Shown here: positions 1-53,629 of the stretch, one piece after another | Layout: the number at the start of each line of letters is the position of its first letter | Numbering within the stretch: the first letter of the stretch is position 1 | From: Tubiluchus corallicola | Lineage: Eukaryota; Animalia; Priapulida | NCBI GenBank assembly: GCA_030141605.1 | Contig: JAQGDQ010001221.1 | Span: forward strand, 1 to 54,355 | Direction of reading: 5' to 3' | DNA length: 54,355 nucleotides | Translations under genes and position numbers: made by a program | The notes under the pieces: model-generated | Told to the model about the DNA's origin: nothing | What the model saw: only the letters and a program-made list of their open reading frames with translations | Databases searched by the model: none

Positions 1-342
1 CACAATTCTGCAATTTCGCGCCTAAATAACTCGTTTAATTTACGTATTGGTTCATCTCACAATACCAGCTATTCAGACGCAGTTAAGAAACCTGGTCTTC
101 TCTCAACGCCAGTAATTAACGACCCACAGCGAACCTACTCCGTTTCGAACCGGAGAGAGCCATCTGAACGAAGCAGTTTGTACTACACAGAATCGGCTAA
201 AGCTCATTATCCTAATAAATGTTCTACAACACTGCCAAGCCAAAATGAACCGCTGCTGTTAACTCAGGAACCAGTTCTAAAATCCGAGATTGAAAACATA
301 CTAACCAAAGCCTTTAAAGAGCTTATCTCCAAGTTCATATAG
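1..342 (+). CDS. C-terminal end of LINE #1 ORF1 (5'-partial)
   Basis: Frame 1 is open from base 1 to TAG 340-342 (HNSAISRLNN...SYSDAVKKP...ELISKFI*). SYxDAVK-type motif and position directly before ORF2 fit an ORF1 tail. Confidence 0.6.
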   Translation, partial: HNSAISRLNNSFNLRIGSSHNTSYSDAVKKPGLLSTPVINDPQRTYSVSNRREPSERSSLYYTESAKAHYPNKCSTTLPSQNEPLLLTQEPVLKSEIENILTKAFKELISKFI

Positions 343-359
343 GCCTAGTATCGTTTAGC

Positions 360-2432
360 TTGGTTTTAGACATTACTCTGAACTTTAAAGCTAGTCTGCG
401 TAAACCTGTTATAAAACTCTTTTTTTACTATTCTATTATGATTTTAATGATGACACTGAATAACAGAAAATTTTTAGCACTGCTGCTAGTGAATTTTTAC
501 ATAATATGGCAAAATAGGCCAATCCATCCTAACTCGTGTAAAGATTATAACGTAACAATTGTGTATACTAGTATTATAATAACAATTATCTCACCCACGT
601 TATTACATAATAGGAAATATTTACTTCTTATAGTACTGTATTCTATACAAGCCCTTTTACTCACAACCGATATTAGTATCCTTATGATCGTTCTAAAATT
701 AATTTACCACGCATGTGTAACGTTTTACTGTGTAAGCTTGATACTATGCTGCTGTATTACTGCAAAAAAACTGCAAGTTAAAGTTATTTTATTTGTGTTA
801 ATAGGTACATTTTGGAAACCATACGAATTTACTTCTTGTATCATAGTTGATATTTCTAACGTATCTTATCATAAAATTACCAAATTTATTTGTGATTATG
901 GGAGCCTTTGTATATTTAACGCCAAATATCAAACAGTTAAGTTCTTTTATTGTAACTATGCTTACGTCTTAGTTATACTACGTACATTACTATACATACT
1001 AAAACTGAAAATGATCTACGTAACAGTAATTTGTAATGTAATGACTAAAGGTAATTTAAACAACTTTTTCATTGCTTTTCCTGTAAATAGCTATAGAATA
1101 AGACACTCTATGCAATTTATTTTAAAAAGATTTGTATCCATCTTAAAAGTTGTGTACCTCAGTGCTATAAGACAAATGCGTCATGTCAATCTAAAATACG
1201 TAGCTCTAAAAAAATTGGAAAAATTACAGATTTCATCTAAATTTGAAAGCACTCTATACTCATGTTCTGAACTGGCTTACATTTTAACCATAATTCGTTT
1301 ACTACTTATACTTGGTGGTATCGAAACTAACCCTGGACCCATTTTGCCAAATAATAATAATAACACCAACAATAATAATACCAGTGATGAGCTAAAAAAA
1401 TTCATGATTACTTATAAAAAGAACATCAAATTTCTAAATATAAATATTCAAAGTCTCGTCAAAAAACACTGGCTGCTGAAAGATACAATTCACGCCACCG
1501 AAAATCTGATTGTTGGCATAACAGAAACTTGGCTACATAAACAAATACTTAGCAACACTATAGAATTACCTAATCACACATTAATAAGAAGAGATAGATG
1601 TAAAAATAAGAAAGGTGGAGGGGTTGCAATGTATATACCTTCACACCTGAGACCACAAGAAATGAAAGGCATCAGAACCGGCAAGATTGAATCTGTTTGG
1701 TGCAGCATTGAGAACTATGTAATAGGAACCATATATAGACCACCCAATCTCAAACACAAAACATTTTTCAAATATTTTAGTGAAGAACTAGAACGCAGTG
1801 TTTTCGAAAATAAAAAAGTTCTTATAATGGGCGATTTCAACCTTGATATTTTAGCTACTAACACACTGGCATACAAAACATACACAGAGCTCTTAAAACA
1901 ATATAATGTCCACATACTTAACAACAATAAACCTACTCGAATTTCTAAAACATCAGCCACAGTAATCGACCATTTCATTTCGAATAGTAACAATAATTTC
2001 GTAGCATATGATACTTTCCCGTGTGATTATTCAGATCATCATTTCACAATATTAGTAGATAAAATGACCCCACAGCATAATAATAACCAAAATTCAGTCT
2101 GGCATTTAATGAGAGACTACGCCCAATACAACAAACATTCATACTTAATCGACTTAGCAAAAATGAACTGGACCTCCATATATATAACTGATAAAATAGA
2201 TACACAAGTTAATATTCTGACATATAATGTCGAATATTGCCTTAATGTACATGCACCATATAAAAACGTAAAGCAAATCCCACAACAAAGCAAACTCAAT
2301 AACGAAAGTACCTGGACAACACCTGAACTTGACAAACTAAGAATAGCGAAAAACAGAATGTATAATATATGGGAAAAGAACAAAACTAAAAACAATCATA
2401 ACAATTATAAAAAAAAAGAGAAATCAATTTAA
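360..2432 (+). CDS. LINE #1 ORF2 part 1: hydrophobic N-terminal region, 2A-like peptide, APE endonuclease (first ATG 438)
   Basis: GGIETNPGP at 1314-1340; APE motifs LNINIQSL, GITETWL, RRDR..GGGVAMY, TIYRPP, MGDFN, PTR, IDHF, SDH; frameshift in A-run ~2409-2417. Confidence 0.9.
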   Translation: MVLDITLNFKASLRKPVIKLFFYYSIMILMMTLNNRKFLALLLVNFYIIWQNRPIHPNSCKDYNVTIVYTSIIITIISPTLLHNRKYLLLIVLYSIQALLLTTDISILMIVLKLIYHACVTFYCVSLILCCCITAKKLQVKVILFVLIGTFWKPYEFTSCIIVDISNVSYHKITKFICDYGSLCIFNAKYQTVKFFYCNYAYVLVILRTLLYILKLKMIYVTVICNVMTKGNLNNFFIAFPVNSYRIRHSMQFILKRFVSILKVVYLSAIRQMRHVNLKYVALKKLEKLQISSKFESTLYSCSELAYILTIIRLLLILGGIETNPGPILPNNNNNTNNNNTSDELKKFMITYKKNIKFLNINIQSLVKKHWLLKDTIHATENLIVGITETWLHKQILSNTIELPNHTLIRRDRCKNKKGGGVAMYIPSHLRPQEMKGIRTGKIESVWCSIENYVIGTIYRPPNLKHKTFFKYFSEELERSVFENKKVLIMGDFNLDILATNTLAYKTYTELLKQYNVHILNNNKPTRISKTSATVIDHFISNSNNNFVAYDTFPCDYSDHHFTILVDKMTPQHNNNQNSVWHLMRDYAQYNKHSYLIDLAKMNWTSIYITDKIDTQVNILTYNVEYCLNVHAPYKNVKQIPQQSKLNNESTWTTPELDKLRIAKNRMYNIWEKNKTKNNHNNYKKKEKSI
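1281..1340 (+). other. 2A-like (StopGo ribosomal skip) peptide ILTIIRLLLILGGIETNPG|P
   Basis: Matches (D)(V/I)ExNPGP with G replacing D, preceded by a Leu-rich tract, immediately upstream of the APE domain. Confidence 0.75.
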
Positions 2433-2448
2433 TAATCTTAATAAATGC

Positions 2449-3555
2449 TTGAAAAATAAACATATACGACAACAATGTAAAAACGCAACAAATACCAAAG
2501 AAAAATGGAAAATTATTAACAATGTAATAAATAAATGCCGTAACAAACTAACGCGTGTTGATGAAATTAAGATCAACAACACTGTTATTACAAAACCCAA
2601 AGATATTGCCAACGCGCTAAATGCAATATTCCTGAATCTTGGAAATTTTAAGGGAGTGGCTTCTCATATTAGCAATAATATAATTAATAAATTAAAAAAC
2701 AAATCGTCTAACACAGTATTCTCATTCAAAAGCGTCACAGTAGGAGAAATCAACGACATATTAAATAACCTAAGTTCCAACAAAGGGAGTGGACCATCAG
2801 ATATTCCTATCAAAATTCTAAAAGATAGCGCATCTGTAATAGCCCCGCATATGACTTACATTGCTAATCAGATAATTATGAGAGGCGAATTTCCAACGGT
2901 ATGTAAAATGGCAAACGTGACTTCAATCCATAAAAAAGATCCAAAATGTGATCCCATGAATTATCGCCCAATTTCCGTAATCCATTGTTTCGGCAAAGTT
3001 TGGGAAAGGGTAATTTATGATCAGATAAATTCATATGTAAATAAACATGAACTTTTATCAAAACATCAGTTTGGCTTCCGTAAACACCATTCAACCATTG
3101 ACGCCCTAATACACACAACAGAAAATTGGAGACATAGTTTAGACAACAAGCAATACATTTTAGCAGCATTTTTTGATTTAAGTAAAGCTTTCGATAGCAT
3201 TAATCACGAACTACTTTACGATAATTTAAAACAAATCGGATTAGATTCGATATCGTTAAAACTGATACAAAATTATCTCAAAGATAGACAACAACGAGTA
3301 AAGTTAGATACAACCAACTTTTCTGACTGGGCCACGTTAAACAGAGGTATACCGCAAGGAACACTACTAGGTCCGTTATTATTTTGCCTGTATATAAACA
3401 ACATATCCAGTGTATTAAAACACTCACAAATAACGCAATACGCTGATGACACTACAATCTACATAGCCCATGAAAATGTCCAAACTGCAAAAAATTATTT
3501 AGAAGAAGATATAAAAAATATAAATATGGCATTTAGTCATTACAAGCTAAAATGA
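2449..3555 (+). CDS. LINE #1 ORF2 part 2: reverse transcriptase
   Basis: NYRPIS, QFGFR, DLSKAFD, GIPQGTLLGPLLF, QYADDT motifs. Confidence 0.92.
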   Translation: MKNKHIRQQCKNATNTKEKWKIINNVINKCRNKLTRVDEIKINNTVITKPKDIANALNAIFLNLGNFKGVASHISNNIINKLKNKSSNTVFSFKSVTVGEINDILNNLSSNKGSGPSDIPIKILKDSASVIAPHMTYIANQIIMRGEFPTVCKMANVTSIHKKDPKCDPMNYRPISVIHCFGKVWERVIYDQINSYVNKHELLSKHQFGFRKHHSTIDALIHTTENWRHSLDNKQYILAAFFDLSKAFDSINHELLYDNLKQIGLDSISLKLIQNYLKDRQQRVKLDTTNFSDWATLNRGIPQGTLLGPLLFCLYINNISSVLKHSQITQYADDTTIYIAHENVQTAKNYLEEDIKNINMAFSHYKLK

Positions 3556-4355
3556 ATAATGACAAAACAGAATTCATGATACTGTCACCCTCATTAAATA
3601 CTAATGATGCATCATCAACCACTTTTACAATAGATAATGCTGTAATCAAACAAACTAACAATGTTAAATTCCTGGGCATACAAGTAGACAATAATCTTTC
3701 ATGGGATGATCACTTTAATAACATATACACAAAAATGGCATCTAGCACATCATATCTCCGACAAGTTAAAGGGCAACTAACAAAGGAAACTAAAACACTA
3801 ATATATAAAACTTTAGTTCTACCACACTTCTTATATGGATGTACGCTACTTCAAAAAACCAAAAGAGAAAGTTACTTAAAATTAAATCTCCTTCAAAACT
3901 ATGCGTTGAGATTGATAGCTGGGTACTCATACAAACACAAGGCAGGTAGACAAAAATTCAAAGCTTCAACAACTAACCTGAGAAAAACTTTAAAATTCCC
4001 AATCATTGAAGCACACAAAGAATATTTTACTCTGCTTTTTATATTTAAATACATTAACAACATCAGCAAACCATTCCAGAATAACAGATTTACCTTTTTT
4101 CCAAATCCTATCGTTAATTCCAGAACATACAATCTAAAACAAATTAGGACAAATACCCACTATGGAACGAACTCTGTAATCAAACAAGCAATTTTACTTT
4201 GGAATTCTCTACCATTACAGGTTAAACAAATCAAGTCCCTATCAGCGTTTAAAACAAAATTAAAATCACTAATATTAACCAGATATGAAATACCATCACA
4301 CCAGTACGACAACATACACACTAATTCCGAATTCATATACCCACGGCCATATTAA
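3552..4355 (+). CDS. LINE #1 ORF2 part 3: RT thumb and C-terminal domain
   Basis: NxDKTEFM, KFLGIQVDNNLSW, LIYKTLVLPHFLYG, LWNSLP; joined to part 2 by a 1-nt shift in AAAA ~3549-3552. Confidence 0.88.
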   Translation: MNNDKTEFMILSPSLNTNDASSTTFTIDNAVIKQTNNVKFLGIQVDNNLSWDDHFNNIYTKMASSTSYLRQVKGQLTKETKTLIYKTLVLPHFLYGCTLLQKTKRESYLKLNLLQNYALRLIAGYSYKHKAGRQKFKASTTNLRKTLKFPIIEAHKEYFTLLFIFKYINNISKPFQNNRFTFFPNPIVNSRTYNLKQIRTNTHYGTNSVIKQAILLWNSLPLQVKQIKSLSAFKTKLKSLILTRYEIPSHQYDNIHTNSEFIYPRPY

Positions 4356-4575
4356 TTAAATCATAGTTTTTTTTTATATTTTTTTGTGTATAGTTGTAAA
4401 TATGTTTGATTTTATTCATCATTACTGCACAGTAGTTTAGATTGCACTGACGCATTTGCCTTCAGCAGTGTAAGTTTTTATTAACTAACACTGATTGATT
4501 ATCTCTATAAAGTTTTTATCAGTGATTATCAATGTTTTTAATGGCAAATAAAGATTATTATATATATATATATAT

Positions 4576-4971
4576 CGTTGGATTACCGTCATCGAGAGTG
4601 CGTCATCATTTGCACGTGCTACCCCCACTAACACCTCCCTTCTCTATTATTAGACTAGAGAATATATTTGCTGTACTGTGATTAATTGTTATTGTTAACT
4701 ATTTCTTTTCTCCTGGTTAAAGTAGTAATCAATTAAATTTTGTTATATACAGCTTAATAGTTGGTTTGGTATTCTATCTACCATCGAATATTACTAGCTC
4801 ATTAAGACTCGTAGGCTCGGGTTCCGCGTGCCCCCGTATGAAACAACAATGCCTTAGCCCGACTCCAGGATTCTAATAGTAAATTATCTAACACTATAGA
4901 ACCCCAGAACCACGTGTTACACCTCGTTTATAGGGCGGTCGTGCCTGCTTTATTATTATATATATATATAT
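4576..4971. repeat. Unclassified ~375-bp insert flanked on both sides by TTATTA(TA)n
   Basis: Same ttattatatatatatat run at 4555-4575 and ~4953-4971; interior partly GC-richer, no informative ORF. Confidence 0.4.
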
Positions 4972-6818
4972 TCAAAGAATCATCAAAAAAACAATATTAC
5001 ACTGAAGCATTGCAAAAACACAAGAATAACATGAAAAAAACTTGGGAAACAATAAACAGTATTATAAAAACTGATCCAAAAACACGACAAACACCAAGTA
5101 AGTTAACAATAAATAATGTGGACTATACAGATACATATGATATTGCCAGTAAACTAAATGAGTTTTTTGTAAATATAGGCCCTGACATGGCTGCCAAAAT
5201 ACCTAAACCTAACGTTAATTTTACTGACTTTTTAAAAAACCCTAACCCAAATTCTTTTTTCATTAATCCTATTACTGAAAATGAAACATGCACACTTTTA
5301 AACACACTTAATTCAAACAAATCACCAGGACCACAAAATATACCAATATCTTTTTTTAAATCTGCAAGTCAAATTATTTCACCAATACTCACATTACTGT
5401 TTAATAAATCGGTTAATGCTGGAACTTTTCCAAATATATTAAAAATAGCAAAAGTTATTCCTTTATATAAAACTGGCTCTCCACATGAACCTGGCAATTA
5501 CAGACCAATATCTCTCTTATCACCAGTATCAAAAGTTTTTGAGAGGCTAATTTACAAGAGATTATACCAGTTTGTTGTGAAAAGTAATATCCTAAGTAAA
5601 TACCAGTTTGGTTTCAGAAAAAATTATTCAACTGCCCTTGCTGTATCCGAATTAATTGACACGATCTCTCTAGACACTGACAAAAAATTACTGAATTGCG
5701 GAATATTTTTAGACTTATCAAAAGCTTTTGATACCGTACAGCATAGTATACTAATAGCCAAATTAAACCATTATGGCATCAGAGGTCTACCTTTGCAACT
5801 AATTCAGTCATATCTAACTAACAGAAAACAATTCATATCTATTAACAATGTATCATCAGACTATAAACACATATCGTGTGGAGTGCCACAAGGCTCTAAT
5901 TTAGGACCTCTTCTATTCTTAATTTATATTAACGATCTTCCCACATGCAGCAACTTTCGAACCCGAATATTTGCCGATGACACTAATTTGTTCATGTCTG
6001 ACTCCAATATAAATAATTTGCAAAAATCTGTTAATGACGAAATGAAAAAAATAGACCTGTGGATGAGGGCAAACCAGCTATCAATTAACTACAAAAAAAC
6101 CAAATTTATGATAATCAACAATAAGCAAATTAACAATGCTAATAATCCAAAATTTCATATTATAATAAACAAACACAAAATTGAAGAAACAGACAACATC
6201 AAATACTTGGGCCTACTCATTGATAATAAATTAACATGGGAACCACATATAAAACACATAACATACAAATTAAGTCGAATTACTGGAATAATTTTAAAAG
6301 TAAGGCACTACGTTGACCAATATATTCTGAAACTTCTATATAATTCGTTAGTTTTCCCTTATTTACAATATTCCATCTTAACATGGGGTACGGCTTTTGC
6401 ATCAATTCAAAAATTAATACAGACACAACAAAACAAAATAGTAAAACTAATAACTTTTGCTCGCAAATATGATCATGCTACACCATCGTTCGTAAAATTA
6501 GAAATTTTAAAAGTAAGAGATATTTACAATCTTGAGTTGTTCAAATTTATGTATAAATTCAATGCTGGTTTATTACCCGAACTTTTTAGTGAATATTTCA
6601 CTAATGTTTCTGATATACATTCCTACTCCACAAGAGCTGCTTCTAATGAACAGTATTTTGTGGAGAGATTTTTTACCCGACATGGTTTCAATAGCTTAAA
6701 ATCACGAGGAGTTAAATTATGGAACTCGTTGCCAAAAGATACCTTTGGAGGTAGCTTATTTTCTGCTTCCAAAAAATACAGAAAATTCTTACTAAATGAA
6801 TATACCTGTAATACATAA
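4914..6818 (+). CDS. LINE #2 ORF2 reverse transcriptase (homologous part starts ~4972; no APE in window)
   Basis: NYRPISLL, QFGFRK, DLSKAFD, GVPQGSNLGPLLF, FADDT, KYLG, HSYSTR, LWNSLP. Confidence 0.9.
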   Translation: MLHLVYRAVVPALLLYIYIFKESSKKQYYTEALQKHKNNMKKTWETINSIIKTDPKTRQTPSKLTINNVDYTDTYDIASKLNEFFVNIGPDMAAKIPKPNVNFTDFLKNPNPNSFFINPITENETCTLLNTLNSNKSPGPQNIPISFFKSASQIISPILTLLFNKSVNAGTFPNILKIAKVIPLYKTGSPHEPGNYRPISLLSPVSKVFERLIYKRLYQFVVKSNILSKYQFGFRKNYSTALAVSELIDTISLDTDKKLLNCGIFLDLSKAFDTVQHSILIAKLNHYGIRGLPLQLIQSYLTNRKQFISINNVSSDYKHISCGVPQGSNLGPLLFLIYINDLPTCSNFRTRIFADDTNLFMSDSNINNLQKSVNDEMKKIDLWMRANQLSINYKKTKFMIINNKQINNANNPKFHIIINKHKIEETDNIKYLGLLIDNKLTWEPHIKHITYKLSRITGIILKVRHYVDQYILKLLYNSLVFPYLQYSILTWGTAFASIQKLIQTQQNKIVKLITFARKYDHATPSFVKLEILKVRDIYNLELFKFMYKFNAGLLPELFSEYFTNVSDIHSYSTRAASNEQYFVERFFTRHGFNSLKSRGVKLWNSLPKDTFGGSLFSASKKYRKFLLNEYTCNT

Positions 6819-8885: not shown

Positions 8886-10696
8886 AAGCTAATTCAAAAA
8901 GGAAAATTTAATACAATTATTTACTTTGGTCCATGTCAAGAATGAAATGAAAAGTCTACTGGAGTTCAGGTTCAGTGTCTGCCCCCTTTACATAGGTAGT
9001 GGTCTGTAGTTTCACACCATGCTGATGCTCAAACTGATAAAAAAGGCATAAATGAATTTAACGTTTGTAAATCATCCTCATTATCGCTAACGCTATTAAA
9101 GTTTGAAACTTTTAATTTCCTTTACAGTTACGTGACTGAACTCTTACATGCTGGTATTGTAAATGGAAAACTGGCATTTAAAAGAAAAACTCAAAAGTTC
9201 ACTGTAGCCAATATATTTCTGGAATAAGAAAAATTATCACTATGTTCTATTTAATGTAAGTGTAACCTACCATTGTCATCAGTATACACAAATAGAATGT
9301 TATAACTTATATGTAATATATGACAGCAGGATGATTATTTATGTTCCCACTACTTGTGCACATGCAGGCAACGTAAGTTTTTTTAATAATGTAATTATTT
9401 CTCTGGATGTTGTATAATTTTATTACAGCTTTGAATTATCCTTTGTCTATTACTACAACACTTAGGGAAATGCCAAGACTGTCAGGAATTTGGGTTTATT
9501 TTGATATTTCAGAAAAAAAAGTTTCAGCAATAAAACTGTGATAAGAGCCTGTGATAAACTGCAAGTGCGTGTAATTATTAAAATCAATTAATGTCGCGAT
9601 CATTTCACACTTTTGCATGCTAATTTCGAATGAGAAATGATTGTCGCTTGTGTAGTACACTTATTCCACTATTATACCACTGTATAATACTGGAGTACTG
9701 GCTTATTCCACTGTAGTACTATTATCATTTGCAAAGAATCCGGAACTTTAAAAGAGAGATTGTTAATGCTATTTTTGTGCTTTTTGATAAATCTTGTTGC
9801 CTACTATGCCATGAAAACCAGTTACTGGCGATAATATTAATAACCTCCAACTCAGTTAGTTAACCACGACAAAGTAACAGAATAACTATTTGGACAAGCT
9901 AAAACTGAACAGTATAAGCTGAGTAACCTGTCAGACACCTACTATGCTTGCTATCTCGCAGAATTCCATGCTTATCTGTAACTAGATTTTCTACAGTACT
10001 TACACATTCTGATGCATAATCCTGTGGATTAAAGCTGTGTAAGCACTTTAAAGTTGTTGCTGTTAGACCTGATGACTGATTTTTACATGACCACCGTTAA
10101 ACGCAAATATTTATTCAGCCGGAATAGCGAAACTTCTGATTGAAATATAGACGTTTTACTATGCGTGCTGTCCAACAGCTTACATAATTTTTTCAAGTGT
10201 GCCTGCAGAGGGATTTGTTTGGTGGGCGATAAGGATGACTTAAATTTCTTTTGCATTTTTTAAGCTTTTATGTACATATATTGAGTGGTAATTTCAGTAT
10301 TTTAAAATGTATTTTAAAATACAGTGAATATTGTTTTAGGGTTGGTTTTCCTTTAACACTTATAGTGTTTAAAACAAACGATAATTTTTTGTTAAAAAAT
10401 TGCGCACCAGTGGAGCACATTAACAGTATAAGTAAAATGCAATTCAAAAGAATGTATAGCATCTAACTGTACAGAATATGGTTTTCATGCAGTGCTTAGG
10501 ACTTCTTTAATAGTTATTATAATAAACAGAAACAATGTGATATCTATTTGTGTTTTAAATTGATTTTAATGCTCTTTTTGTTTGAGTAATATTAATTTTG
10601 TTTTCTTTTGCAGGGCTAGCAAGGCTACTATTGTTAAAAAACTTGTGGTTATTAAACTCTATCTTGCTATAAACAGCAGTTGTGAGCAAAAGGGTA

Positions 10697-12244
10697 ATGT
10701 TTACGTGGCAAATTTGCCGACAAAATCTAAGATTCGGCTGTAGGACGTACGTGAGAGTACGGTTTGCTCCTAGTCCAACTGGTCAAATTCATCTTGGTGG
10801 TTTACGAACAGCTTTGTATAATTATTTGTTTGCAAAGTCACAAAACGGAAAATTTATATTACGAATAGAAGATACAGACCAGACAAGGCTGGTGCCTGGT
10901 GCTATAGAAGACCTACAAGAAATGCTGTCATGGTGCGGTTTAATTCCGGACGAAGGACCGTCACATTCAGGAAAACATGGACCATATTTACAGTCGCAAA
11001 GACTACCTTTATACCAGCAAAAAGTAAAAGAACTGATAAAAAACGAAACAGCGTACTACTGTTTTTGCACAGAGCAGAGGCTTAATTTGATTCGGAAAGA
11101 GGCCCTGAAAAATCGTGAGACACCAAAGTATGACAACAAGTGCAGGAATTTGAGCAATAGAGATGTTTTGGAAAAATTATCACACGGGACACAGTACTGT
11201 GTTAGATTTAAACTTAATCACTTGGAGACATTCAATGACCTTATTCATGGCACTATAAATCATGATGTCGCTGATGTTGAGGGTGATCCAGTGATCATGA
11301 AAACTGATGGATACCCAACGTATCATTTTGCAAATGTAGTAGATGATCACTTCATGGAAATAACACATGTACTGCGTGGAATAGAATGGCAGTCATCAAC
11401 CGTGAAACATTTACTTTTGTACAGAGCATTTGGTTGGGTGCCACCTCAGTTTGCGCATTTACCATTACTACTAAACAAAGATGGTAGTAAGTTGTCCAAA
11501 CGACAGGATGATTTACATGTTCACCAATTAAAGTTAAATGGTTACTTTCCCGAGTCTATATTAAATTTCATCACTAATTCAGGAGGTGGTTTTGGTAGAA
11601 CTAGCAAAGTTGTTTATTCATTGCCAGAACTGGGCGGGCGATTTCAGCTAAGTAAAGTAAACACAAACTCTAGTCGGCTGAATTTTGATCAGCTAAAGAG
11701 ACTAAACCGTCAGTTTATTCAGCAGCAGTTACTGCGGTCAGGTGATGACCAGCAGGAATTGATCAGTTTAACAAAAAACTATGTACAAGAAAAGTTTGCT
11801 GATAGATTGCCAGAAGTTACTGAATCTCAGGCAAACACATTCACTGATGAGTATGTCGGAAGCGTTTTAGATTGCTTGTCATCAAGAATATATTCACTAA
11901 ATGATTTAGTCGAACCTCAAATGGAATTTATTTGGTTCGCTCCACAACAGATCAAGACCAAAAGCATTCAAACACCTGGCAATACCCCTAGTGAACTTCT
12001 GGGTGTTGCTGTTAAATACTGTGAATCTATGCCTAAAGAAGAATTTGTGAAAGACAACATTAACTTATCGCTTAGAAATTTTTGCAAGCAGAATCATATG
12101 CATTACAGTTCTTGTATGAAGCTTATACGTTCTGCTTTGAGTGGACTGAGTCAAGGTCCTAGTGTCGCAGAAATGCTTGAACTGCTGGGCAAAGAAAACA
12201 GCATACGAAGGTTAAAGGCGGCAGCAGAGCAGCTGCTGTGGTAA
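10697..12244 (+). CDS. EARS2: Mitochondrial glutamate--tRNA ligase, 515 aa, single coding exon
   Basis: VRVRFAPSPTG-HLGG (HIGH), LRIEDTDQ, PTYHFANVVDD, LSKR (KMSKS), anticodon-binding C-terminus. Short Arg-rich N-terminus. In-frame TAA at 10670 fixes ATG 10697; likely 5'-UTR splice acceptor ttttcttttgcag ends at 10613. Confidence 0.93.
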   Translation: MFTWQICRQNLRFGCRTYVRVRFAPSPTGQIHLGGLRTALYNYLFAKSQNGKFILRIEDTDQTRLVPGAIEDLQEMLSWCGLIPDEGPSHSGKHGPYLQSQRLPLYQQKVKELIKNETAYYCFCTEQRLNLIRKEALKNRETPKYDNKCRNLSNRDVLEKLSHGTQYCVRFKLNHLETFNDLIHGTINHDVADVEGDPVIMKTDGYPTYHFANVVDDHFMEITHVLRGIEWQSSTVKHLLLYRAFGWVPPQFAHLPLLLNKDGSKLSKRQDDLHVHQLKLNGYFPESILNFITNSGGGFGRTSKVVYSLPELGGRFQLSKVNTNSSRLNFDQLKRLNRQFIQQQLLRSGDDQQELISLTKNYVQEKFADRLPEVTESQANTFTDEYVGSVLDCLSSRIYSLNDLVEPQMEFIWFAPQQIKTKSIQTPGNTPSELLGVAVKYCESMPKEEFVKDNINLSLRNFCKQNHMHYSSCMKLIRSALSGLSQGPSVAEMLELLGKENSIRRLKAAAEQLLW

Positions 12245-17088: not shown

Positions 17089-20000
17089 ATGCAAGGCGAT
17101 GACGTAATACCTGCAGAAGATGGTGGGTATGGATGGGTGTGCGTGGTTGCTGGATTCATAGCCCGATTTCTCCTTTCCGGACAGATCAGATCGTTTGGAA
17201 TTCTTTTAACGCCCTTAATGAATGCGTTTAACAGCACAGCAGCATTAACTGTGTGGATAAATGGCATCACGTTTTCGTTTTCGTTTATGTTCTGTAAGTA
17301 ACATTTTCTTTTTTATGTCCAAATTTCATAAAATAAAAAAGTGTTTTTCGTGAGGATCAGTTAAATATTGTTTTACCACTGATGTTTATTACCGTTTTTA
17401 GTTTTGAAGTTACTGTGCATTGGTGTTACACTGTTACAATTGCGTATTATGCTTCTGTTTCTTTGAAACTTCAATATAGTCAGCGTACTGTTAGCTGATT
17501 CTTTTACCTTTCTAAATTACTACAGACGTGCCTTTGTCCTTCTACTTAATTTACACTGCAAGGATCAACGTAGCGATGGTTTCGACTTCAGCAGTACTGC
17601 ACACCTGTGACATGTTTACTATTTGCACTACAAAACGCTATAATACGCACTCATACCCTTTAAATAATTGAATTAATTATTTAATTGTCACCAGTTTCGA
17701 CGCAGTCAAGGCTTAAGACCGAAAATGCATTTTACACTGCCTCTTAATTCTCAGTGTGAACCGACTTGTGCCCAAAACTGACTCAAACGTAAATCCCAGA
17801 ATGAACGCTCGGCCTTTTATATTATTCATGTATGATCATTAGTTTTTGTAAGCCCTTCTAATATTTCAGCTCCTCTTACCAGCGCCTTGGTGAACAGGTT
17901 CGGCCATTCGAAAGTAATTTGCTTGGGAGGTTTCGTTGCTGGGTGTGGCTTGACACTTTCTTACATCGTGATAGACCTTTGGTTTTTGTTCATTACGTAT
18001 GGATTTTTACTTGGTAAGTAGGCATGCAAGGCCCTATATACAAAAAGTATTTTAGAAACTTAGTTCGTAATCGTTCTAATTAGGATGCCAACAGTAGCAG
18101 TACGTGACTGCAGATTTCCAAGTAATTTTCATGCGTTAGTGCACGTGACATTGTGAAACAGAGTATAAACTAATTACAATACCGTAACAGCGATTCATTA
18201 TTCTAGGAACGTCAGACAGTGTGCAGGTTGTAATGTAAATTTAACATAGCAACATTTTATCTTATTTTGCAGGCATCGGTTGTGGTTTAACTTTCAATCC
18301 AGTCATCTCAATTATACCTCTTTACTTCAAGAAAAGATTATCATCAGCATTAGGACTATTAGCAATGGGATCAATTGCTGGTGGGGCAGCGTTTCCTTTC
18401 CTTGTGGATTATTTTTTAAATGAATTCAGCTGGAATGGATCATTGCTAATATCTGGAGGAATAATTTTCAATGTTTGTGCTATGGGACTACTGATAAAAG
18501 CACCTAAGGCTCGTAAACTAAACCCAGAAATTTACGAGATATCAAATAACAGTGAGAATGAAGTGTCAGACAAAACTAATGATAAGCAATTCAAGTTTCA
18601 CTGGGAAGTGTTTCGAGACAAAAGATTCATCACTTACATAGTGCTAATCGGTGCAAATCTTGGCTACTTTCAAGTTTTTGCATTGCTGCCCATAAAGACT
18701 GAAGAATTAGAAGATACCGCTCTCAGTGGCGCTGCTTCTGTGACTGCCCTTGCGTTTGCAGATGTTGTCACTAGAATGTTGTGGGCTTTTCTTTGGGATG
18801 TTGGTGTCATGCGTGAACACCAATTAAGACAGTTGTCAATGGCAGTGCTATGTTTAATATGTGGCGTAGTGTTGATATGTGTTGGACTAACATCAAAAGA
18901 TCTATCATTTATAATTGCAGTGTTGTTGATGGGCGTTTTGATGAGTGGTACCACTTCTTTAATATCCCCAATGCTTGCAGATCTCGTGGGTCCTGTTAAG
19001 TTTGGCAGTGCATTTGGATCTGTATTTTTCTTTCAAGCAATAGCGATGCTCATTTTGCCAGTAATTACAGGTAATAAATTAGAAGTGCACACAGTAGAGC
19101 ACAGAGCTCTGCTAAGGATTACCGAAGTATTTTGTAATAATTAAACTGCACAGCTGCTTGTTTAAATATTAAGAAGTCACTAGTAATCATTGTTCTGATG
19201 TCTTACTGCATCTAGAATGTAACCCTTTATTTAATCATGGATGCCAAAATCCACTTTTCGACCCACTAATTAGTATGGAAGCAAAAAACTTGGGTCCTTT
19301 ATCTCCTCAGGTTACTTGAGCATAACACCAAGGAAAAAAGCAAGAACAACAATTTTTCTGCAAATTGCTCAACTAAGCTGCAATTTTTATAGCTTTGTTG
19401 GATGCTATATGGCATGTTCGTACAAACATAGCGCTGCTAGTTTGTTACGCAGATGAGCAGTTGGTCTCCCCATCTAGCAGCTAAAACTCTAAACATTATT
19501 TTACTGTTACTTCGCTACACAGTTTTTTTATAAAATGATGTTATGCAATAGTCTATTAGCCTTCTAGATACTTTAGTAGTGTGTCAGTTCTTTAGGCAAT
19601 CCAGAGCAAATAAGCTTATTCCACAACCCCAGCCATCTATTATAAAACTACGTTATATTTAAAACCCTCAATTTTACTGTTTAAAGTTGGCTTAAGGAAA
19701 TTTATATATTATACCTACTTAATCAAACAACCAAATTTTGATTTAACAGTGTCAATGATAATAAAATCTTCATAATATAGCATTAAGCTGCTGCAGTTTC
19801 TATGGTGTTCATTCGACAGCAAGCTATTAGTATTTAAATGTTTCCGTGGCCAACAGCTTAGATTTCTCTTAGTCTGCCTTATGAAGAAATTGCCATAACT
19901 ATAGCACGAAAATTTATAAACTTATAAATTTATAAACTGCATTGGCAGGAACAAGAGCACACGTGATAGAAGTATTTTCATGAGTCACTCAACCAGACGT

Positions 20001-29104: not shown

Positions 29105-32100
29105 ATGCAAGATGATGATATCACAACTAGGCAGGAATGCGGGTATGGATGGGTGTGCGTCGCTGCTGGATTTATAGTTAGGTTTCTCCTTTCTGGACAG
29201 ATAAGATCGTTTGGAATTCTACTCCTGCCTTTAATGAATACGTTCAACAGCACTGCTACATTAACTGTGTGGATAAATGGTATCACACATTCAGTCGCTT
29301 TCTTGTGTTGTAAGTATAATCAAATTTTGTATTTTTCATTATAATTGTGCATAATAAAAACAGGCATGCTAGTAACAAAAAAAAACAAGTAGTTACCTTC
29401 TCGTTCTCGTTGTTGTTTACTCTATTTAGGGCACTATATTTTTGGCATTTTTGCATTCTAGTTGCTGGATCGTAAGAAGTTTTTTAAAGAATGAAATTTT
29501 TTGTAAAATCGTTGCTCTTGACTGCATTAATTTGCATACTGATATAAAGAAAATGCAGCCGTGAAATTAAGCATCCGCGATAGAGTAAAAATGTCTACAA
29601 GTTTGGCGCAAGTATCCCCCGTTCTCAGTTTTTGAAACTGCAATATTCGCACGACATTTGAAATCGATCCAATTAACGCATTTCGACTCCTACTTTAGCA
29701 GTTTGCATTTAAAGTATCAAAAAACCTAGGTGAAGCCTAATCGGCCAACAAAAATTGTACCCCATTATTCTACAAATTGGCCTCCTGACACAGATTTCTA
29801 TTGACAGACGTGCTATACTATACTTGTGCTTCACGTAGAAACAAGCCTTGGCAAAATTGATAGACTCATATGGTTGACGTTTGATAATTATCACTCATAC
29901 TTGAGCATCATGTTTAAGGAAACTTGGCTACTGTTTGCTGCAGCACAATAACAAGTTTGCTTAAAAAGAGAGCAGAAATGGGTGCTTCCAATACACCACG
30001 AAAAACCTCTGTGCTCGTTTAGCTTTTGTTACGTGATATACGGCAATAATTATTATTTAAATTTGTGCTGAAGTTATTAGTGGGATACTCCACTATACTG
30101 ACAAAAAGCTTTTATTGCGGTTTCAGCTCCTCTTGCAAGTGCTTTGGTGTACAGATATGGCCATTCTAAGATCATTTCATTAGGAGGTCTCCTAGCAGGA
30201 TGTGGACTAGCACTTTCATATGCTGCCATGGACCTTTGGTTTTTGTTTATCACGTACGGGTTTTTGCTTGGTGCGTAGCTTAATTTACTAATGTTCTAGA
30301 AACAACAGCAGTTGAAACAGAACAGCAGCACTATATATACATATACACGTACATGTATGTAAATATATAACATAATAGTACAGCATATATATATATATAT
30401 ATAATATATAAAAAATAAACCCACAAAATTAGCAAACTATTAATGTTTTATTGCTAAGCTTTCGACTAATATGTCTTCATCTGAGCAAAATAGAAAATTT
30501 ACATGAAACATCATTACAACGCCCCCCTTTATAACGCCAACCATATTTTTACAAAACAAAATGTCTATATTTGCATCGACATGACGTGTGTACATAAGTT
30601 GGCAGTCACGAAGTAGGCGGTATAAAGCAGTTAGACTGTATATATACATGCATGTTTATATAACTACAATTGAGACTGCACTAAACATGTTGTTTATCTG
30701 TAAATGCTTTTGCTAAAGGATAATTGGTAATAATTGTCTTATTTCATTTCATAGGTATTGGCAGTGGCTTTACCATAAATCCAGTCACCTCAATTGTACC
30801 CTTTTACTTCAAAAATAGATTAGCATCAGCATTTGCAGTGCTAGCTACGGGGTCAACTGCTGGTGCGGCAGTGTTTCCTTTCCTTGTAGAATATTTGTTA
30901 CACGAATTTAATTGGACCGGGTCTTTATTAATAAGTGGTGCAATTATCCTTAATATCTGTGCTATGGGGCTACTAATAAAGACACCCAAAGTGCAGAAAG
31001 CTAGTCAACAAAATCGTGTGATAACAAGCAACTCTTATGAAGGCAAACCGGAAAGTGTCAAAGAAAGTAAATTCGTGTTTCACTGGGCGGTGTTTCGTGA
31101 TCAAAGATTCATCTTGTACATTCTCTTGATTGCCGGGCATCTTGGCTACTTTCAAATCTTTGCATTGTTGCCCGTAAAGACAGAAGAAACTGAAGACACT
31201 GTTATCAGTGGAGCGACTGCAGTAACTGCATTAGCACTTGCGGACCTTGGTGCAAGACTTTTATGGGCTTTTCTTTGGGACATTGGTATCATGCGTAAAC
31301 ATATGTCGAGGCAGTTATCTATGGCGTTACTGTGTTTGGTATGTGGTATAGTGGTCATTTATGTTGGACTGGCATCAGAAGACCTGCAGTTAATTATTGC
31401 TGTATTTCTGATGGGAATGTTAATGAGTGGAGTCGCTTCTTTAGTACACCCCATGCTTACAGACATAGTGGGTCCTGCCAAGTTTGGTAGTGGAATGGGA
31501 GCACTTTTATTCTTTGAAGCAATCGCTATGCTTATCTTACCAGTTATTACAGGTAAAAAGCAGAGACCAGATAAGTTTTTATGTATTAAAAATGCCTTAC
31601 TGTTGTTCAATAGACATTCAATGTACAAACATTACTACAATCTCAAATATTTTTATTATATACACCCATGATTAATAAATAAATGTATACTGATTCGATA
31701 GCAATGACAAATCAAGAGTGTTTTTCAAAAAATGGTACAAAAATTACACACCATGGAACAACCAATAAATATTTGGAGAAAATATACCGGAATTCTGTGA
31801 ACAAAGTTTCTGCTCTTTCATGAGGCCTGGAATATCTCTGGATATAAACGGTGGAATTTAGCATTGATTCACGATTGAGCGAGTGCACCCTATTGGAAGA
31901 AATAACTGAGATGTCAGTCACTTTCTGTAATCCAAAGTACACTAGAGCGCCTACAAAAGCAAACACTTCAAAAAAACTAAGTGTTTATTTCAAGAAAATA
32001 TGGTATTCAAGTTTAAACGTTTACTGGGTAATTATAGCAGGATAAAGCTATTCCACAACCTCATTAGTTTCACTTCCGAAAACATAAACCAGCATTGATT

Positions 32101-44046: not shown

Positions 44047-44721
44047 CTTTTGACTCTTGACTCTTTTGACTATTGGAAACTTTACAAAATTCAAATTGAA
44101 CGTTGAACTTTAAATTACAAAATGACTTTCATTACAGTTAAAAATGAATTAAGTTCTAGAAACTAAAAGTAATAGAAACTTTTTTTGCGCTTAGCGCAAA
44201 ACATTTTAAGTTAACTAATTATAATGCAGGGAAGTACACTTATTATTTTTACAACTACTTAACATAGTCAATAAGAGTACTAGGAGGCTTTGAGAGTCTT
44301 CCAGACCTGGTAAATACTGGCATTTTTTGTGCTGAAATTTGAGGACGTGGTAGGTTGTGTTTCTGGTGTTGACAGCGTGTTTGGATTAGAGGCTGTTCTG
44401 TTACTATATCATGACATTCATCTTCTAGGTAATTTTCTTGTTCAAATATATCTGTTTCTTTGGTCTTCAACAAATCACGTCTGTTTCTTCTCCATACTCT
44501 ACCTGATGGAGTAAGTACATTGTATGAACGTGGTTGAAGAGTTTGCCTATCTGGAGGAAATAAAAGTGCTGGCTGCCATTTGTCTTCATGTCTAACTCGA
44601 ACGGTATCACCATGTTTTAATGGACTAAGAGTTCTCGACCCTCTGTCAAAATAGTGTTTTGCCTTCTGTCTGTATTCATGTAGCTTTTCTTGTACATGTT
44701 CTGGCTGTTGTATTTTCGGTC

Positions 44722-45408
44722 TTAACAGTGTTGGATTTGTTGGTAATTTCGTTCGTGTTCTTCTGTTGAATATTCTTTGCGCGGTGATCCAGTTACATCA
44801 TCTCTTGGTGTATTTCTGTGATTAAGTAGCGCTAAGTACGGATCTTTTCTAGATTCGTAGCATTTAATAAGTATGTTCTTGGCTATACCAACTGATTTCT
44901 CTACTAATCCATTAGCTTGTGAGTGTCTTGGTGATATGCGGCTATGATCAAAGGCAAATTGACGTGCAAATTCAGCAAACTCATTGCTATTGAATGGAGG
45001 ACCATTGTCGGTTGTTACTCTTTTCGGTATGCCGTGAGTACAAAACCATTTTTTGAGTTGTCTTATGACCGTAGATGCTTTAGAATCTCGTTCTAATTTC
45101 TCAATCTCAAAAAATTCACTGTAGTAGTCAGTACAAATTAACCACTTGTAACCTAAGCAGTCAAACAGATCAGATGCTACATGTATCCAAGGACCTTCTG
45201 GAATTTCTGAAGGCATTAGTGGCTCTTTTTGTTGCTTCATTCTGTGTGCTTGACATGTTGCACATTTTGATACAATATCTTCTATCTGTTTGTTGATACC
45301 TGGCCAATAAACAATATCCAGTGCTAGTTGCTTACATTTAACCATACCTAGGTGGCTTTCATGAATTATATCTAGCGTTTGTTCCTGTATTGATTTTGGC
45401 ACAACCAC
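44722..45408 (-). CDS. Gypsy integrase (frameshifted fragment)
   Basis: HESHLG..YWPGI..CATC zinc finger; SDLF, TDNGPPF, NGLVEKSV (DDE). Confidence 0.9.
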   Translation of the reverse strand: MVVPKSIQEQTLDIIHESHLGMVKCKQLALDIVYWPGINKQIEDIVSKCATCQAHRMKQQKEPLMPSEIPEGPWIHVASDLFDCLGYKWLICTDYYSEFFEIEKLERDSKASTVIRQLKKWFCTHGIPKRVTTDNGPPFNSNEFAEFARQFAFDHSRISPRHSQANGLVEKSVGIAKNILIKCYESRKDPYLALLNHRNTPRDDVTGSPRKEYSTEEHERNYQQIQHC

Positions 45409-45527
45409 TCTTTCACCTTTAAAGATGATTCCATCTATGTAGCTAAGCTCTTCTTGGAAGTCAAAATATGGCCTTACAAAAGGACTAACTTGTAATCTGT
45501 GTTCAGGCCATCCTTCGGGTGAAGTAA

Positions 45528-46847
45528 TTACTTTAATTCTTGCAGTGCTTCATCTGTGACTGTTTCTCTTTTCACTTCTTCCAATCGCTTTGGATTGATG
45601 TTCGATGTGCTAACGACTTCTTCAGCAGAGATACTAAAGATGTGACTGAAATCATCTGTTAAGTTTGGACCGCTATCTGCAAGATATGCACGACTTAGTG
45701 CATCTGCAACTGGTATTTCTGTGCCTCTTTTAGCCACTAGTTTGAAGTCATATTTCTGCAATTTTAGTCGCATTCTTTGCAGTCTGAGTGGTACTTGATA
45801 TAGTGGTTTCTCTAAAATTCTGATCAAAGGCAGATGGTCGGTCTCTACTACTATGTCGCTTCTTCTGTATACAAAAGTATGGAACTTCTTCATTGCAAAT
45901 ACAATTGCCAGAAGTTCTTTCTCTATTTGTGCATAAGCGCACTCTGCATCTGTAAGTGCTTTTGAGCCATAAGCAACTGGTTGCTGATTTTGCTGTAAGA
46001 CACATCCTAGACCAGACATGCTGGCATCACAAGAGATAGTAATCGGCTCTGTTTGGCTGTAAAATTTCAAGGTTGGTGCTGTAGTCATCACTCTTTTAAT
46101 TTGAGGGACTGCTTCTATATGTACTTCATCGAAGTGCCATGAGAACTGTTTTTTGCTACTCTCTTTAATTAGCTGTCTGAGAGGCTCTGTTACAGTTGAC
46201 AAAGTGGGTAAGAATTTACATGTGTATGTAACCATTCCTAATAGCGTTTGGACTTCCTTTATGCACTTTGGCATTGGCATGTCAGTAACTGCTTTGACTT
46301 TGTCTGGATCGATCTGAACGCCTTTGCTACTGATAATATAGTCTGCATATTTAACACTTTCTTGACATGATGCTAGTTTTCTCAGTGAAAATGTGACATT
46401 ATTCTCTCTGGCTCTTTGTAATATGCATCTTAGCAACTCACAATGTTCTTTGACTGCTACTGAGTCTGCAAGTAAGTCATCAGTTATAATGTTCAATTTC
46501 TCTATGTCTCCAAAGATTTCCATCATCTTCCGTTGATATAGTTCAGGGGCGGAAGATATGCCCATTGGAAGTCTCCTGTACATGTATCGGCCAAACGGTG
46601 TGTTGAACGCTGTTAACAAGCTTGACTCTTCATCAAGTTCTAGTTGGAAATAACCAGAGTTGGCATCTAGCACTGTGAAATGTTGGCTTCCACTGACACG
46701 AGTGATTATATCATCAACAGTATTAATTGGGTAATACTCTTTAAGTAAGGCTTTGTTTAAATCTTTAGGGTCAATTATTAATCTCACATCAACATCTGGG
46801 CTTAACCCTTTCTTTTTCACAACATGTAATGAGCTGCACCAAGGTGT
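45528..46847 (-). CDS. Gypsy RT and RNase H (downstream of the BEL insertion)
   Basis: TPWCS..VKKK, LDANSGYFQ, TPFGRY..RLPMGISSAPE, ITDDLL, CDAS..GLG, YAQIEKELLAI, TDHLPL, ADALSR. Confidence 0.92.
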   Translation of the reverse strand, partial: TPWCSSLHVVKKKGLSPDVDVRLIIDPKDLNKALLKEYYPINTVDDIITRVSGSQHFTVLDANSGYFQLELDEESSLLTAFNTPFGRYMYRRLPMGISSAPELYQRKMMEIFGDIEKLNIITDDLLADSVAVKEHCELLRCILQRARENNVTFSLRKLASCQESVKYADYIISSKGVQIDPDKVKAVTDMPMPKCIKEVQTLLGMVTYTCKFLPTLSTVTEPLRQLIKESSKKQFSWHFDEVHIEAVPQIKRVMTTAPTLKFYSQTEPITISCDASMSGLGCVLQQNQQPVAYGSKALTDAECAYAQIEKELLAIVFAMKKFHTFVYRRSDIVVETDHLPLIRILEKPLYQVPLRLQRMRLKLQKYDFKLVAKRGTEIPVADALSRAYLADSGPNLTDDFSHIFSISAEEVVSTSNINPKRLEEVKRETVTDEALQELK

Positions 46848-46851
46848 GGGA

Positions 46852-47231
46852 TGATGGCTTTCTGAAGGTAAAATTGCTAAGATTTCAGCATAGGTAGAAC
46901 ACAGGTGAGTTTATTTATGCAAATCAGTAACAGCACATGTTTATTCAATGATCTCTGATAGCCAACTGCCCAGGTAAGTTTTCTATGAAGCAAGGAAGCC
47001 AGCTATGAAGCTTCTTTTCTATGAAGGTAAATGTTATGCACACTACATAGTTCAAGGATGAAAGTTTAGACTGTATATGAAGAAATAGACTTATTTTACA
47101 GCTGAAAACTTGTGTGGGATTTTTAATGTTTTAACCAGAGAATGCAATAATATGACATAATGAATAAAAAATAATGACATATGACATAATAATAAAAAAT
47201 AATGACATATGACATCGTGAGCTTCATGACA
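46852..47231 (-). repeat. BEL 3' LTR (380 bp)
   Basis: Matches 51551-51920; preceded on the minus strand by PPT-like GGTCGGAG. Confidence 0.92.
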
Positions 47232-48204
47232 CTCCGACCAGGAAGTTGGAAATAACATAAACTATTTGATACTTTAACCTTTAAAGTCATTTAACTTTTA
47301 CAAGAAATAAATTTTGTTGTCATTTCTTAATCATTTTAATAATGACATCTAACATTTTAAGTACGAGATGGCGCCACCAAGCCGTTTGGGCGCCGTGGAT
47401 TTACGAACACAACAATACGAATCACACCATTGCAAAACGGGGTATTTGGGCTATGTACAAAAGGGGTAAGTTTTTTTAAATCTAATTTAATAGTGGCATT
47501 AAATTCCAAATTAATTTCGGATATACCTGTCACGCTTCATTCGTAACAATTTTCATTACATACAACTTAACGATAAACTCAATATTTCTCTATCGAGTTT
47601 CACTACAAATAACATTCAATCTCTAGATTATAAAATCATTATGACGATTTGAGTCCAGAGTATCGATTTAGGATGCATACGATTTTATCCATTGGTAGAT
47701 TTAAATTACTAGTAGATTGCTAACCGAGGACATGCACAAGTATTACTATTAGCAAGTATAATAAGCAATGACATACAGCATTGGTTACTCTTTGTGTTTA
47801 TGATAAAGTTTGTACAGCATTTGCTTGGTTTACCTGTAGGTTATGCTGTACATGTTCTATCACACAATTAGACACAATTTATCATTAACATTTCTATCAT
47901 CCTTTTCTTTTCAGGTTTATAACAAATAGCACGTTTTGTGCACAAGGTAAGTATAAGGTAACTTAGGTAAGTAATATTTTAAAAACTTAATAAGCAGCTA
48001 TTCAAACAGTGTTAACAATGACAACAACAAGTTGATATTCAAATGATGTTAACAACAATAGCAATACTGAACAATGCAAAACTTATTTACAAAATCTCTT
48101 CTAGTTTAAGGAAGAGTTTATCCCACCTGTCAAGGAGGAGGGAGAAATTTGATAGCAATGCCTTTTGGGCGCTTTAATGTTTCTGATTTTACAGGTAGAT
48201 TTGA

Positions 48205-48950
48205 TTAAGGTGGATCTCGGGTTTCAATAGAAACAATTCGATACAAGTGGAAAGTTTTCCGACATTTGCAGGATCCACGTGGTAAGTTTGAATCAGAAAT
48301 CAGAATTACATCATTATCGTTTGACGGAATAATTACAACATTTTTCATAGAGTTTGGCTTTTTGATTTCTGTATATGTATATTGTGTCAAAGATAGCCAC
48401 ATGATTTTAAATGGAAATTTAATTCCATACATGAAAACTTTTATGGCTCTAAAAATGAATGCAATGAGAAATGAGAGCCAATCCAGAAAGGAAAAGTCAT
48501 TAATATTAATAACTTTACCAACAGCTTTATGACATGTGACAATGTCAGAAATATGACACCCACTTTCAAAGAGTACTTCCTTTTTAGGGGGTATGTCTGA
48601 CTGTATTTGGGACGTCTCTTCTGAAGCCAGTGTAGGTACTGAACTAGAAACTGGCGAAACATCTGGTCGTGTCGTCTGATAGTTATCAGTTACAGGCTCT
48701 GGACCCGTTTGGTGTATCTCAGATTTGGAGCAACTTAATGTACTACTACTATTCGGTAATGAATCCGTTAATGTGCAATCAAGCTCAGGCTGAAGACAAA
48801 ATAATGAGTTTTCTGAACAAATTGTAGATTCATTGTTTGCCAAGGTGTCTGTTTTTTCAACTACCCCTGTAAGTATATAGCCTAAAAGGCTTGCATACAG
48901 GAAGAGGCCGGGTGAAACTTCCTGCTTTTCAGCTCCTAGAATTTTGAGGT
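48205..48950 (-). CDS. BEL ORF continuation: protease C-terminus, unrelated segment with a hydrophobic stretch, integrase C-terminal (DUF5641-like) relic
   Basis: Frameshift near 48955 gives DYLKILG..SLLGYILTG; ends with DVILISDSNLPRG. Confidence 0.55.
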
Positions 48951-51308: not shown

Positions 51309-51530
51309 GTTCAAACAAGTGCAGTCGTCTGGATTCCAAATTAGAAGCACCAATACTGTCCATATATTTAGCACTCAGTGTAAACAGGAACAGAGTAACT
51401 GTATCACTTGGTTTGCAGCCTTGTAGATATCAAACTGATTTTTTTTCCTTTCAAATAAAGTCCTAGCATAATTTCCTTGGTTCTATAAACTTGTATAAAA
51501 TGAAGAATTTCGGCACCATATGAAGAATGG

Positions 51531-51548: not shown

Positions 51549-51550
51549 TA

Positions 51551-53598: not shown

Positions 53599-53629
53599 AT
53601 TCTATTTACTTTGTTTTCACTAAATTTAT

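Follow-up and report, generated by a model that had tools for sequence, protein, structure and literature searches.

Organization of the element

The DNA analysed here, referred to as the window, is a stretch of 54,355 nt from the priapulid Tubiluchus corallicola (contig JAQGDQ010001221.1). Its first part is occupied by an APE-type non-LTR retrotransposon (LINE), with APE followed by the reverse transcriptase (RT) in ORF2 and a simple-repeat 3′ tail. The following features were recognized:

1..342, forward strand: upstream open frame of 113 aa, probably the ORF1 C-terminus, ending with TAG at 340-342; its 5′ side is cut by the window start
343..437, forward strand: spacer between the ORFs; the window copy is open here in the ORF2 frame, and no ATG precedes 438
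438..1337, forward strand: 300-codon hydrophobic ORF2 leader; starts with the ATG at 438 (or 447/450) and ends on the Gly of NPG/P
471..509, forward strand: predicted signal-peptide/signal-anchor-like h-region FLALLLVNFYIIW, with a basic n-region ahead; hydropathy peak
552..758, forward strand: three predicted candidate membrane segments (aa 39-57, 63-81 and 89-107; 19-aa Kyte-Doolittle values 1.71, 1.87 and 2.07)
966..1022, forward strand: fourth predicted candidate membrane segment (aa 177-195; 1.85 on the same scale), interrupted by R and K
1160..1199, forward strand: leader stretch complementary to the 3′ UTR of the element (partner 4432-4470)
1281..1340, forward strand: 2A-like peptide ILTIIRLLLILGGIETNPG/P with a non-canonical core and four Leu at −19 to −10; candidate activity
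1338..2432, forward strand: Asn-rich linker and APE endonuclease (PF03372/PF14529), in the leader frame
2347..4355, forward strand: linker, RT (PF00078, E 4.7e-33) and C-terminal domain, in two frames
4356..4575, forward strand: 3′ UTR; leader-complementary arm (4432-4470), AATAAA (4547-4552) and (TA)n tail

Judging by its position, the first of these frames probably belongs to ORF1; it has no match in Pfam or PHROGs, and contigs of other copies show that the element family continues upstream of the window start. The forward frame 318..2432 contains no stop codon and runs on into the APE domain (PF03372 match at ORF aa 376-574 in a Pfam search), bearing out the observation of an earlier note on this DNA that about 980 nt between the ORF1 stop and APE are stop-free and in frame with APE. 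Ahead of the Gly-Pro site (1337/1338), the frame is open for 340 codons, compared to ~25 stops expected and 19-46 stops in the other five frames. The probability of such a run, calculated from the base composition, is ~4e-12; in 3 x 2000 Markov simulations, open runs did not exceed 132 codons. Entry into the leader frame by −1 frameshifting from ORF1 was considered and rejected, as inspection of 318-342 revealed no slippery heptamer. The inter-ORF spacer is probably untranslated, because other copies show 1-nt indels in the T-run at 419-420; some coding-like periodicity is discernible within 343-437.

Downstream, the leader frame ends at 2432 through a frameshift in an A-run near 2409, where other copies have one base fewer. 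Another A-run, near 3548, also differs by one base in other copies, and it is because of the frameshifts at these two runs that the RT and the C-terminal domain of the window copy lie in two further frames. The end of the element is marked by AATAAA plus (TA)n at 4547-4575, and the summed contig depth climbs steeply toward it, that is, the coverage of the copies is 3′-biased. A depth spike in the bin 1257-1413 is probably caused by an AAT microsatellite (1350-1380), which encodes an Asn run directly after the 2A. From the resemblance of its motifs, the element presumably belongs to the CR1/L2 group; the APE tree contained only unnamed relatives.

A non-canonical 2A-like peptide closes the leader

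The leader ends with a 2A-like motif, LLLILGGIETNPG/P (1281-1340), of which NPGP (1329-1340) lies in frame and is the only one on the forward strand. Its core, GGIETNPGP, has G in place of the D of the canonical GD(V/I)ExNPGP. Where the earlier note placed a 2A skip site, a 2A-like motif is present and in frame, but its core is not canonical. According to a preprint (PMC13405545), GxExNPGP is a non-canonical yet functional core, and at least three Leu at −19 to −10 are tied to lower protein output; its four Leu in this interval put the window peptide in the output-lowering class of that study. Supplement file 3 of the same preprint includes 15 GGIE-type peptides, of which nine are skipping, two show fall-off only and four are non-skipping. 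The sole tested peptide with an identical stretch of the last ten residues was classed as non-skipping, and the one most alike upstream as fall-off with reduced output. Given these mixed classes, skipping by the window peptide is plausible but not assured; from its sequence, the motif likely either skips or stalls the ribosome. An upstream signal has been reported to be able to inhibit 2A skipping (PMC2978324).

The leader frame is maintained across copies

The window contains no second copy of the element. Copies are present in public data, namely, in four DNA runs of two studies; three of the runs represent one sample, which may be the source of the window DNA. Contigs of the main family show 0-2 differences from the leader and no gaps in both studies, and the open leader frame is common to the main family. 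Stops and frameshifts, which the earlier note had named as evidence against a coding leader, were encountered in decayed copies (a stop at 1123 in one of them, loss of 4 nt at 1197 in another), but the main family is open. In the deepest run, the indels inside the leader amount to one among the 12 listed of 30, the deletion at 1197, which occurs in one low-depth contig; the remaining listed leader indels are confined to runs X3 and X4 and are largely located in homopolymers. Homopolymer indels present in X3/X4 but not in X1, a run of the same sample, are probable library errors and were excluded as evidence.

For the analysis of selection, the best-supported 40 of 74 substitutions were considered, decayed copies included, and the one at 432 was dropped because it lies upstream of the ATG. 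The 39 remaining variants (438-1337) comprise 16 synonymous and 22 non-synonymous changes and one stop, the latter being the change at 1123, which comes from a diverged low-depth copy. With these types of change, 10.3 of the 39 variants would be expected to be synonymous, fewer than the 16 observed (p 0.027); this corresponds to an omega of ~0.5 in this small set and indicates weak purifying selection. Among variants of APE, RT and the C-terminus, 15/24 are synonymous, a difference from the leader that is not significant (p 0.12). The leader is thus kept open under weak constraint, which supports the conclusion that it is a maintained coding part of ORF2.

Hydrophobicity and predicted membrane targeting

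The four hydrophobic peptides singled out in the earlier note are all present in the leader. Without the 2A helix, its GRAVY is 0.74 versus 0.28 ± 0.19 for a stop-free null of the same composition (p 0.009), and codon position 2 carries an excess of T (122/270 versus 174/540, p 2e-4). The leader contains 32 K+R compared to 9 D+E, 12 Cys and two sequons, NVT (aa 38) and NVS (aa 141). A 13-aa putative h-region at aa 12-24 accompanies an 11-aa hydropathy peak of 2.56 within the first 45 aa. Further downstream, four 19-aa Kyte-Doolittle windows reach at least 1.6 (aa 39, 63, 89 and 177), of which the third is Cys-rich (CCC), and there are two uncharged 22-aa runs. One of the four windows is clearly favourable on a rough biological insertion scale. 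The number of windows is borderline against the nucleotide null (p 0.052), and residue shuffles of the leader yield 3.9 hydrophobic windows versus the 4 observed; hydrophobic residues are segregated no more than in the shuffles.

Both the membrane and the signal readings of the leader derive entirely from hydropathy. Of the hydrophobic, probably multi-pass module envisaged in the earlier note, the hydrophobicity beyond composition is upheld, whereas the multi-pass character comes down to four windows of moderate hydropathy. The leader is likely to be membrane-targeted and may be an ordered multi-pass protein.

The +1 frame of the leader DNA has a GRAVY of 0.67, nearly that of the leader itself, and T-rich DNA therefore explains part of the hydrophobicity. 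This is compatible with an alternative in which the leader serves as a nearly neutral spacer for read-through, open only since ribosomes have to cross it from ATG 438 to ORF2, perhaps with a role at the RNA level, and hydrophobic mainly through its T-rich DNA. The predominance of non-synonymous variants (22 of 39) and the lack of conservation beyond the family point in the same direction, as do internal Met codons at 1011, 1041 and 1110, any of which would give a leader of ordinary length. We nevertheless consider a spacer unlikely: the hydrophobicity exceeds even the stop-free null, T is concentrated at codon position 2, and synonymous changes are in excess.

Searches for homologues and folds

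No homologue of the leader was detected with phmmer among all representatives, the best 150 matches all beginning at query aa 264 or later, nor among proteins of near and longer lengths. Pfam, PHROGs and the Atlas contain no match to it, and a related-locus search of metagenomes returned no relative. The AlphaFold model of the leader, built from the single sequence, has low confidence (pLDDT 45.7) and is uninformative on the fold. Given this query, the fold search in BFVD was weak; it produced no match under E 0.001.

These searches bear on the suggestion of the earlier note that the leader might be env-like. A protein for fusion or entry, rendering the LINE infectious, would be in keeping with the hydrophobicity, the two sequons and the placement ahead of a virus-like 2A, and with nothing else that we found. 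The sequence includes no long soluble ectodomain, and neither family nor, within the weakness noted above, fold searches matched such a protein, so that an env-like leader appears highly improbable.

Leaders of related 2A-bearing LINEs

A recognizable 2A-like motif is present in 23 of 152 homologous proteins. Scanning metagenome contigs (a 4/64 sample) and genome contigs with a degenerate motif yielded 159 matches in 158 loci, 70 of them with APE downstream; in viral contigs, APE was found downstream of none of 125 matches. Among 54 stop-bounded related leaders, the median open length is 90.5 codons and a single one, of 270 codons, reaches at least 150. In the 28 leaders for which at least 300 codons of DNA were available, the largest values are 270 and 146; decay makes some of these open lengths too short. 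With 340 open codons, 300 of them from the ATG, the window leader is the longest of the set, about three times the usual length. It is better viewed as the long extreme of the general layout of 2A-bearing LINEs than as a unique module, because hydrophobic leaders are the rule among them. The premise of the earlier note that ORF2 begins at or close to the endonuclease fails for 2A-bearing LINEs, which normally carry a leader (PMC3708506).

To characterize the leaders, those having a Met 60-155 aa upstream were collected (45), and removal of similar ones left 29 non-redundant leaders. An 11-aa hydropathy peak of at least 2.0 is present in 22 of the 29 (300 shuffles: mean 10.6, maximum 17) and absent from the other seven. 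The peak lies inside the first 40% of the leader in 23/29 (shuffles: 12.0, maximum 21). Along the leaders, hydropathy drops from 0.62 to −0.48, and basic residues are concentrated in the last fifth ahead of the 2A (K+R 0.18 versus ~0.09). Most of the related leaders thus share the order of an early, signal-peptide-like hydrophobic stretch, a basic patch, the 2A and APE. In a control with the other frames, 16/56 were positive versus 17/28 in the leader frame. The recurrence of N-terminal hydrophobic peaks in unrelated leaders, far above shuffles, is a further argument against the spacer alternative.

At ~50% APE identity, most pairs of leaders have no detectable similarity. This includes the window leader and that of its nearest relative, P0003, which is the sister of the window element in a quick tree (support 98) and shares nothing with it upstream of the 2A helix, although the called start of P0003 may fall short of the real one. 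Targeting sequences would be expected to diverge this rapidly. Nine leaders (L003, L057, L113, L132, L138, L144, L148, L151 and P0153) form a subclass that starts with MxxDxxxWRxxIGxF instead of a signal-like stretch; this motif is absent from the window leader (score −1.4 bits, within shuffles).

A long hydrophobic stretch was also found in P0001, which combines, in one frame, an SGNH esterase, a Ser/Pro-rich linker, ~257 hydrophobic residues, a 2A, APE and RT. The stretch holds four Kyte-Doolittle windows of the type seen in the window leader. It was tested as kin of the latter and rejected (best E 2.6, no similarity). Given that the P0001 stretch is unrelated in sequence and that P0001 occupies a different part of the APE tree, leaders of this long hydrophobic kind seem to have originated at least twice.

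These data raise the alternative that the window leader constitutes a stable membrane protein in its own right, dedicated and multi-pass (an RNP anchor, viroporin-like or vesicle-shaping), released by the 2A in excess over APE-RT. Its 300 aa lie far beyond the median and above every stop-bounded relative, the four candidate windows, the Cys content with its CCC cluster and the two sequons would suit such a protein, and P0001 offers an unrelated LINE protein of comparable design, between an esterase and a 2A. Furthermore, the esterase ORF1p of a LINE binds lipids (PMC3905857), and Odon 2013 (PMC3708506) raised the possibility that the upstream product is required in excess. Against this stand the lack of any homologue in the protein searches and in the Atlas, the omega of ~0.5 compared to the stronger, if not significantly so, synonymous bias of APE/RT, the low-confidence model, which is uninformative in itself, with hydrophobic residues segregated no more than in shuffles, and the sister element that shares nothing of the leader. 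A dedicated membrane protein thus seems rather unlikely, and less likely than the ER-targeting leader proposed below.

Two further observations concern the leader regions and the loci. In L005, the leader region contains a tandem duplication, one way in which leaders could lengthen. For the window leader, an origin of its length by internal duplication was rejected, the protein self-alignment scoring 45 compared to 41 ± 6 in shuffles and the DNA being at chance as well. LINEs of animal type with APE downstream (among L121-L158, e.g., L134, L138, L144, L148 and L149) were encountered in contigs of bacterial and archaeal MAGs, where they most likely represent host contamination of the bins.

Complementarity between the leader and the 3′ UTR

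A stretch of ~40 nt in the leader is complementary to the 3′ UTR (1160-1199 and 4432-4470), with a core of 31 nt at 84%; the computed energy of the duplex is −37.6 kcal/mol, compared to −21 for the next best unrelated site. The score was unmatched by shuffles of the UTR (0/500; it beats 1000/1000), and with pairing-weighted scoring none of 100 half-versus-half shuffles reached it. By contrast, the match is not exceptional in a whole-element control with plain scores, where at least 4 of the 30 shuffles did equally well. The base at 1184 in two older copies would add a pair to the duplex. The possibility that the leader is an antisense copy of another part of the window was examined and rejected, the 31-nt match in the 3′ UTR being the only one found.

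Nine relatives could be extended, and the six with a findable ORF2 end were tested for the same complementarity. It is strong in L284 (0/500), with the partner 85 nt behind the stop. Two others are nominal, at 0.02 with an uncertain UTR and 0.036 with an AT-rich tail, and three are not significant (0.09, 0.11 and 0.49); control regions likewise reach p 0.02 and 0.05. The complementary stretches may form a functional duplex or stem from a captured inverted fragment, and are regarded as a lead. The significance of the match in the window element would also suit a spacer with an RNA-level role.

Proposed role of the leader

As the best explanation, we propose that a fast-evolving, ER-targeting leader and the 2A stall or skip jointly throttle and position the synthesis of ORF2p, an account that we regard as about evenly poised between right and wrong. 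In this scheme, the ribosome would re-initiate at ATG 438 after ORF1, SRP would recognize the h-region at aa 12-24, and the translating ribosome would be brought to the ER together with its RNA, where one to four further leader segments might insert into the membrane. Skipping at NPG/P would then yield APE-RT with an N-terminal Pro on the cytosolic side of the ER or of the outer nuclear membrane, close to the RNA that encodes it, whereas fall-off would give no APE-RT and read-through a membrane-bound ORF2p. Free APE-RT would be limited in amount and ORF2p kept scarce, and the released leader would be mostly a by-product. Leader sequence and length would change quickly because selection, as we propose, acts on openness and hydrophobicity, not on a fold. 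The steps of this scheme are modelled on established co-translational targeting and on PMC4981915 and PMC2978324. The ER-targeting model gives no reason for the threefold length of the window leader.

A more elaborate scenario, which we consider quite unlikely, is that many invertebrate LINEs are two-product systems, in which an ER-inserted protein is freed by StopGo from APE-RT. In the family of the window element, it would have grown into a true multi-pass protein that sets up a membrane site, or a vesicle, where RNPs assemble, and the duplex between leader and 3′ UTR, unzipped by the ribosome, would expose the RT-binding 3′ end as ORF2p is made, resulting in cis-preference.

Comparison with known systems

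2A peptides ahead of APE are known in Rex1, L2, Crack, CR1 and Ingi LINEs (Odon 2013, PMC3708506; Luke 2013, PMC3894237), and both of these papers propose that the 2A acts as a throttle of ORF2. The window element resembles these animal LINEs in carrying a 2A-like peptide toward the N-terminus of ORF2, immediately before APE. However, the 2As described in PMC3708506 usually follow the start of ORF2 at a distance of ~40-80 aa, and most of the elements lack ORF1, whereas the window leader spans 300 aa, an upstream ORF is seemingly present and the core is GGIE. In the open literature, including the accessible text of PMC3708506, PMC3894237, PMC12338488, PMC4120745 and PMC3905857, we found no statement that such leaders resemble signals or span membranes, nor does the accessible text of PMC3708506 and PMC3894237 call them hydrophobic; they may be mentioned in Repbase reports, theses, subscription papers or the Odon 2013 supplements.

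Outside LINEs, a sea-urchin NLR protein uses a signal together with a 2A to split its products between the secretory pathway and the cytosol (Roulston 2016, PMC4981915). The window element shares with it the combination of a signal-type hydrophobic sequence, here predicted, and a 2A. In the NLR, a host immune protein, the 26-aa 2A itself is the signal, whereas in the retrotransposon ORF2 the candidate h-region is separate, ~270 aa upstream. Extra N-terminal material ahead of 2A-APE and Leu-rich 2A-like peptides are also features of the DUB- or repeat-bearing ORF2p-like proteins of PMC13405545. That material consists of soluble known domains (Josephin, OTU and pentacotripeptide repeat), and the available parts of the preprint describe no membrane leader. 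Finally, a LINE-encoded membrane route for RNP assembly has also been proposed for the esterase ORF1p of ZfL2-1 and its kin (Schneider 2013, PMC3905857). There, a folded ORF1 domain binds lipids peripherally, whereas the ORF2 leader of the window is predicted to be inserted co-translationally.

Overall, the window element is a real, coding variant of the known 2A-LINE system, unusual in its length, and the broader pattern of signal-like leaders before LINE 2As is the more valuable result. The function of the sequence upstream of the 2A in LINEs has been an open question since 2006-2013. If the leaders are ER signals, the reverse transcriptase of many invertebrate LINEs would be synthesized by ribosomes attached to the ER. 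This would bear on the site of RNP assembly, the scarcity of ORF2p and cis-preference. With its extreme leader, classifiable 2A and candidate long-range RNA duplex, the element offers a direct test.

Other features in the window

A second, 5′-truncated LINE occupies 4842-6818, separated from the first by a short spacer and starting near a (TA)n run; its RT (PF00078) is 35% identical to that of the first element. At 10673-12241, there is an intronless ORF of ~515 aa for a mitochondrial glutamate-tRNA ligase (EARS2-like). Two similar long exons, at 18245-19141 and 30724-31668, presumably belong to monocarboxylate-transporter (MFS) paralogues, which they resemble. On the reverse strand, 44258-53601 contains broken frames that we take to be LTR-retroelement-like (gag-, protease-, RT- and integrase-like), apparently with one element nested in another.
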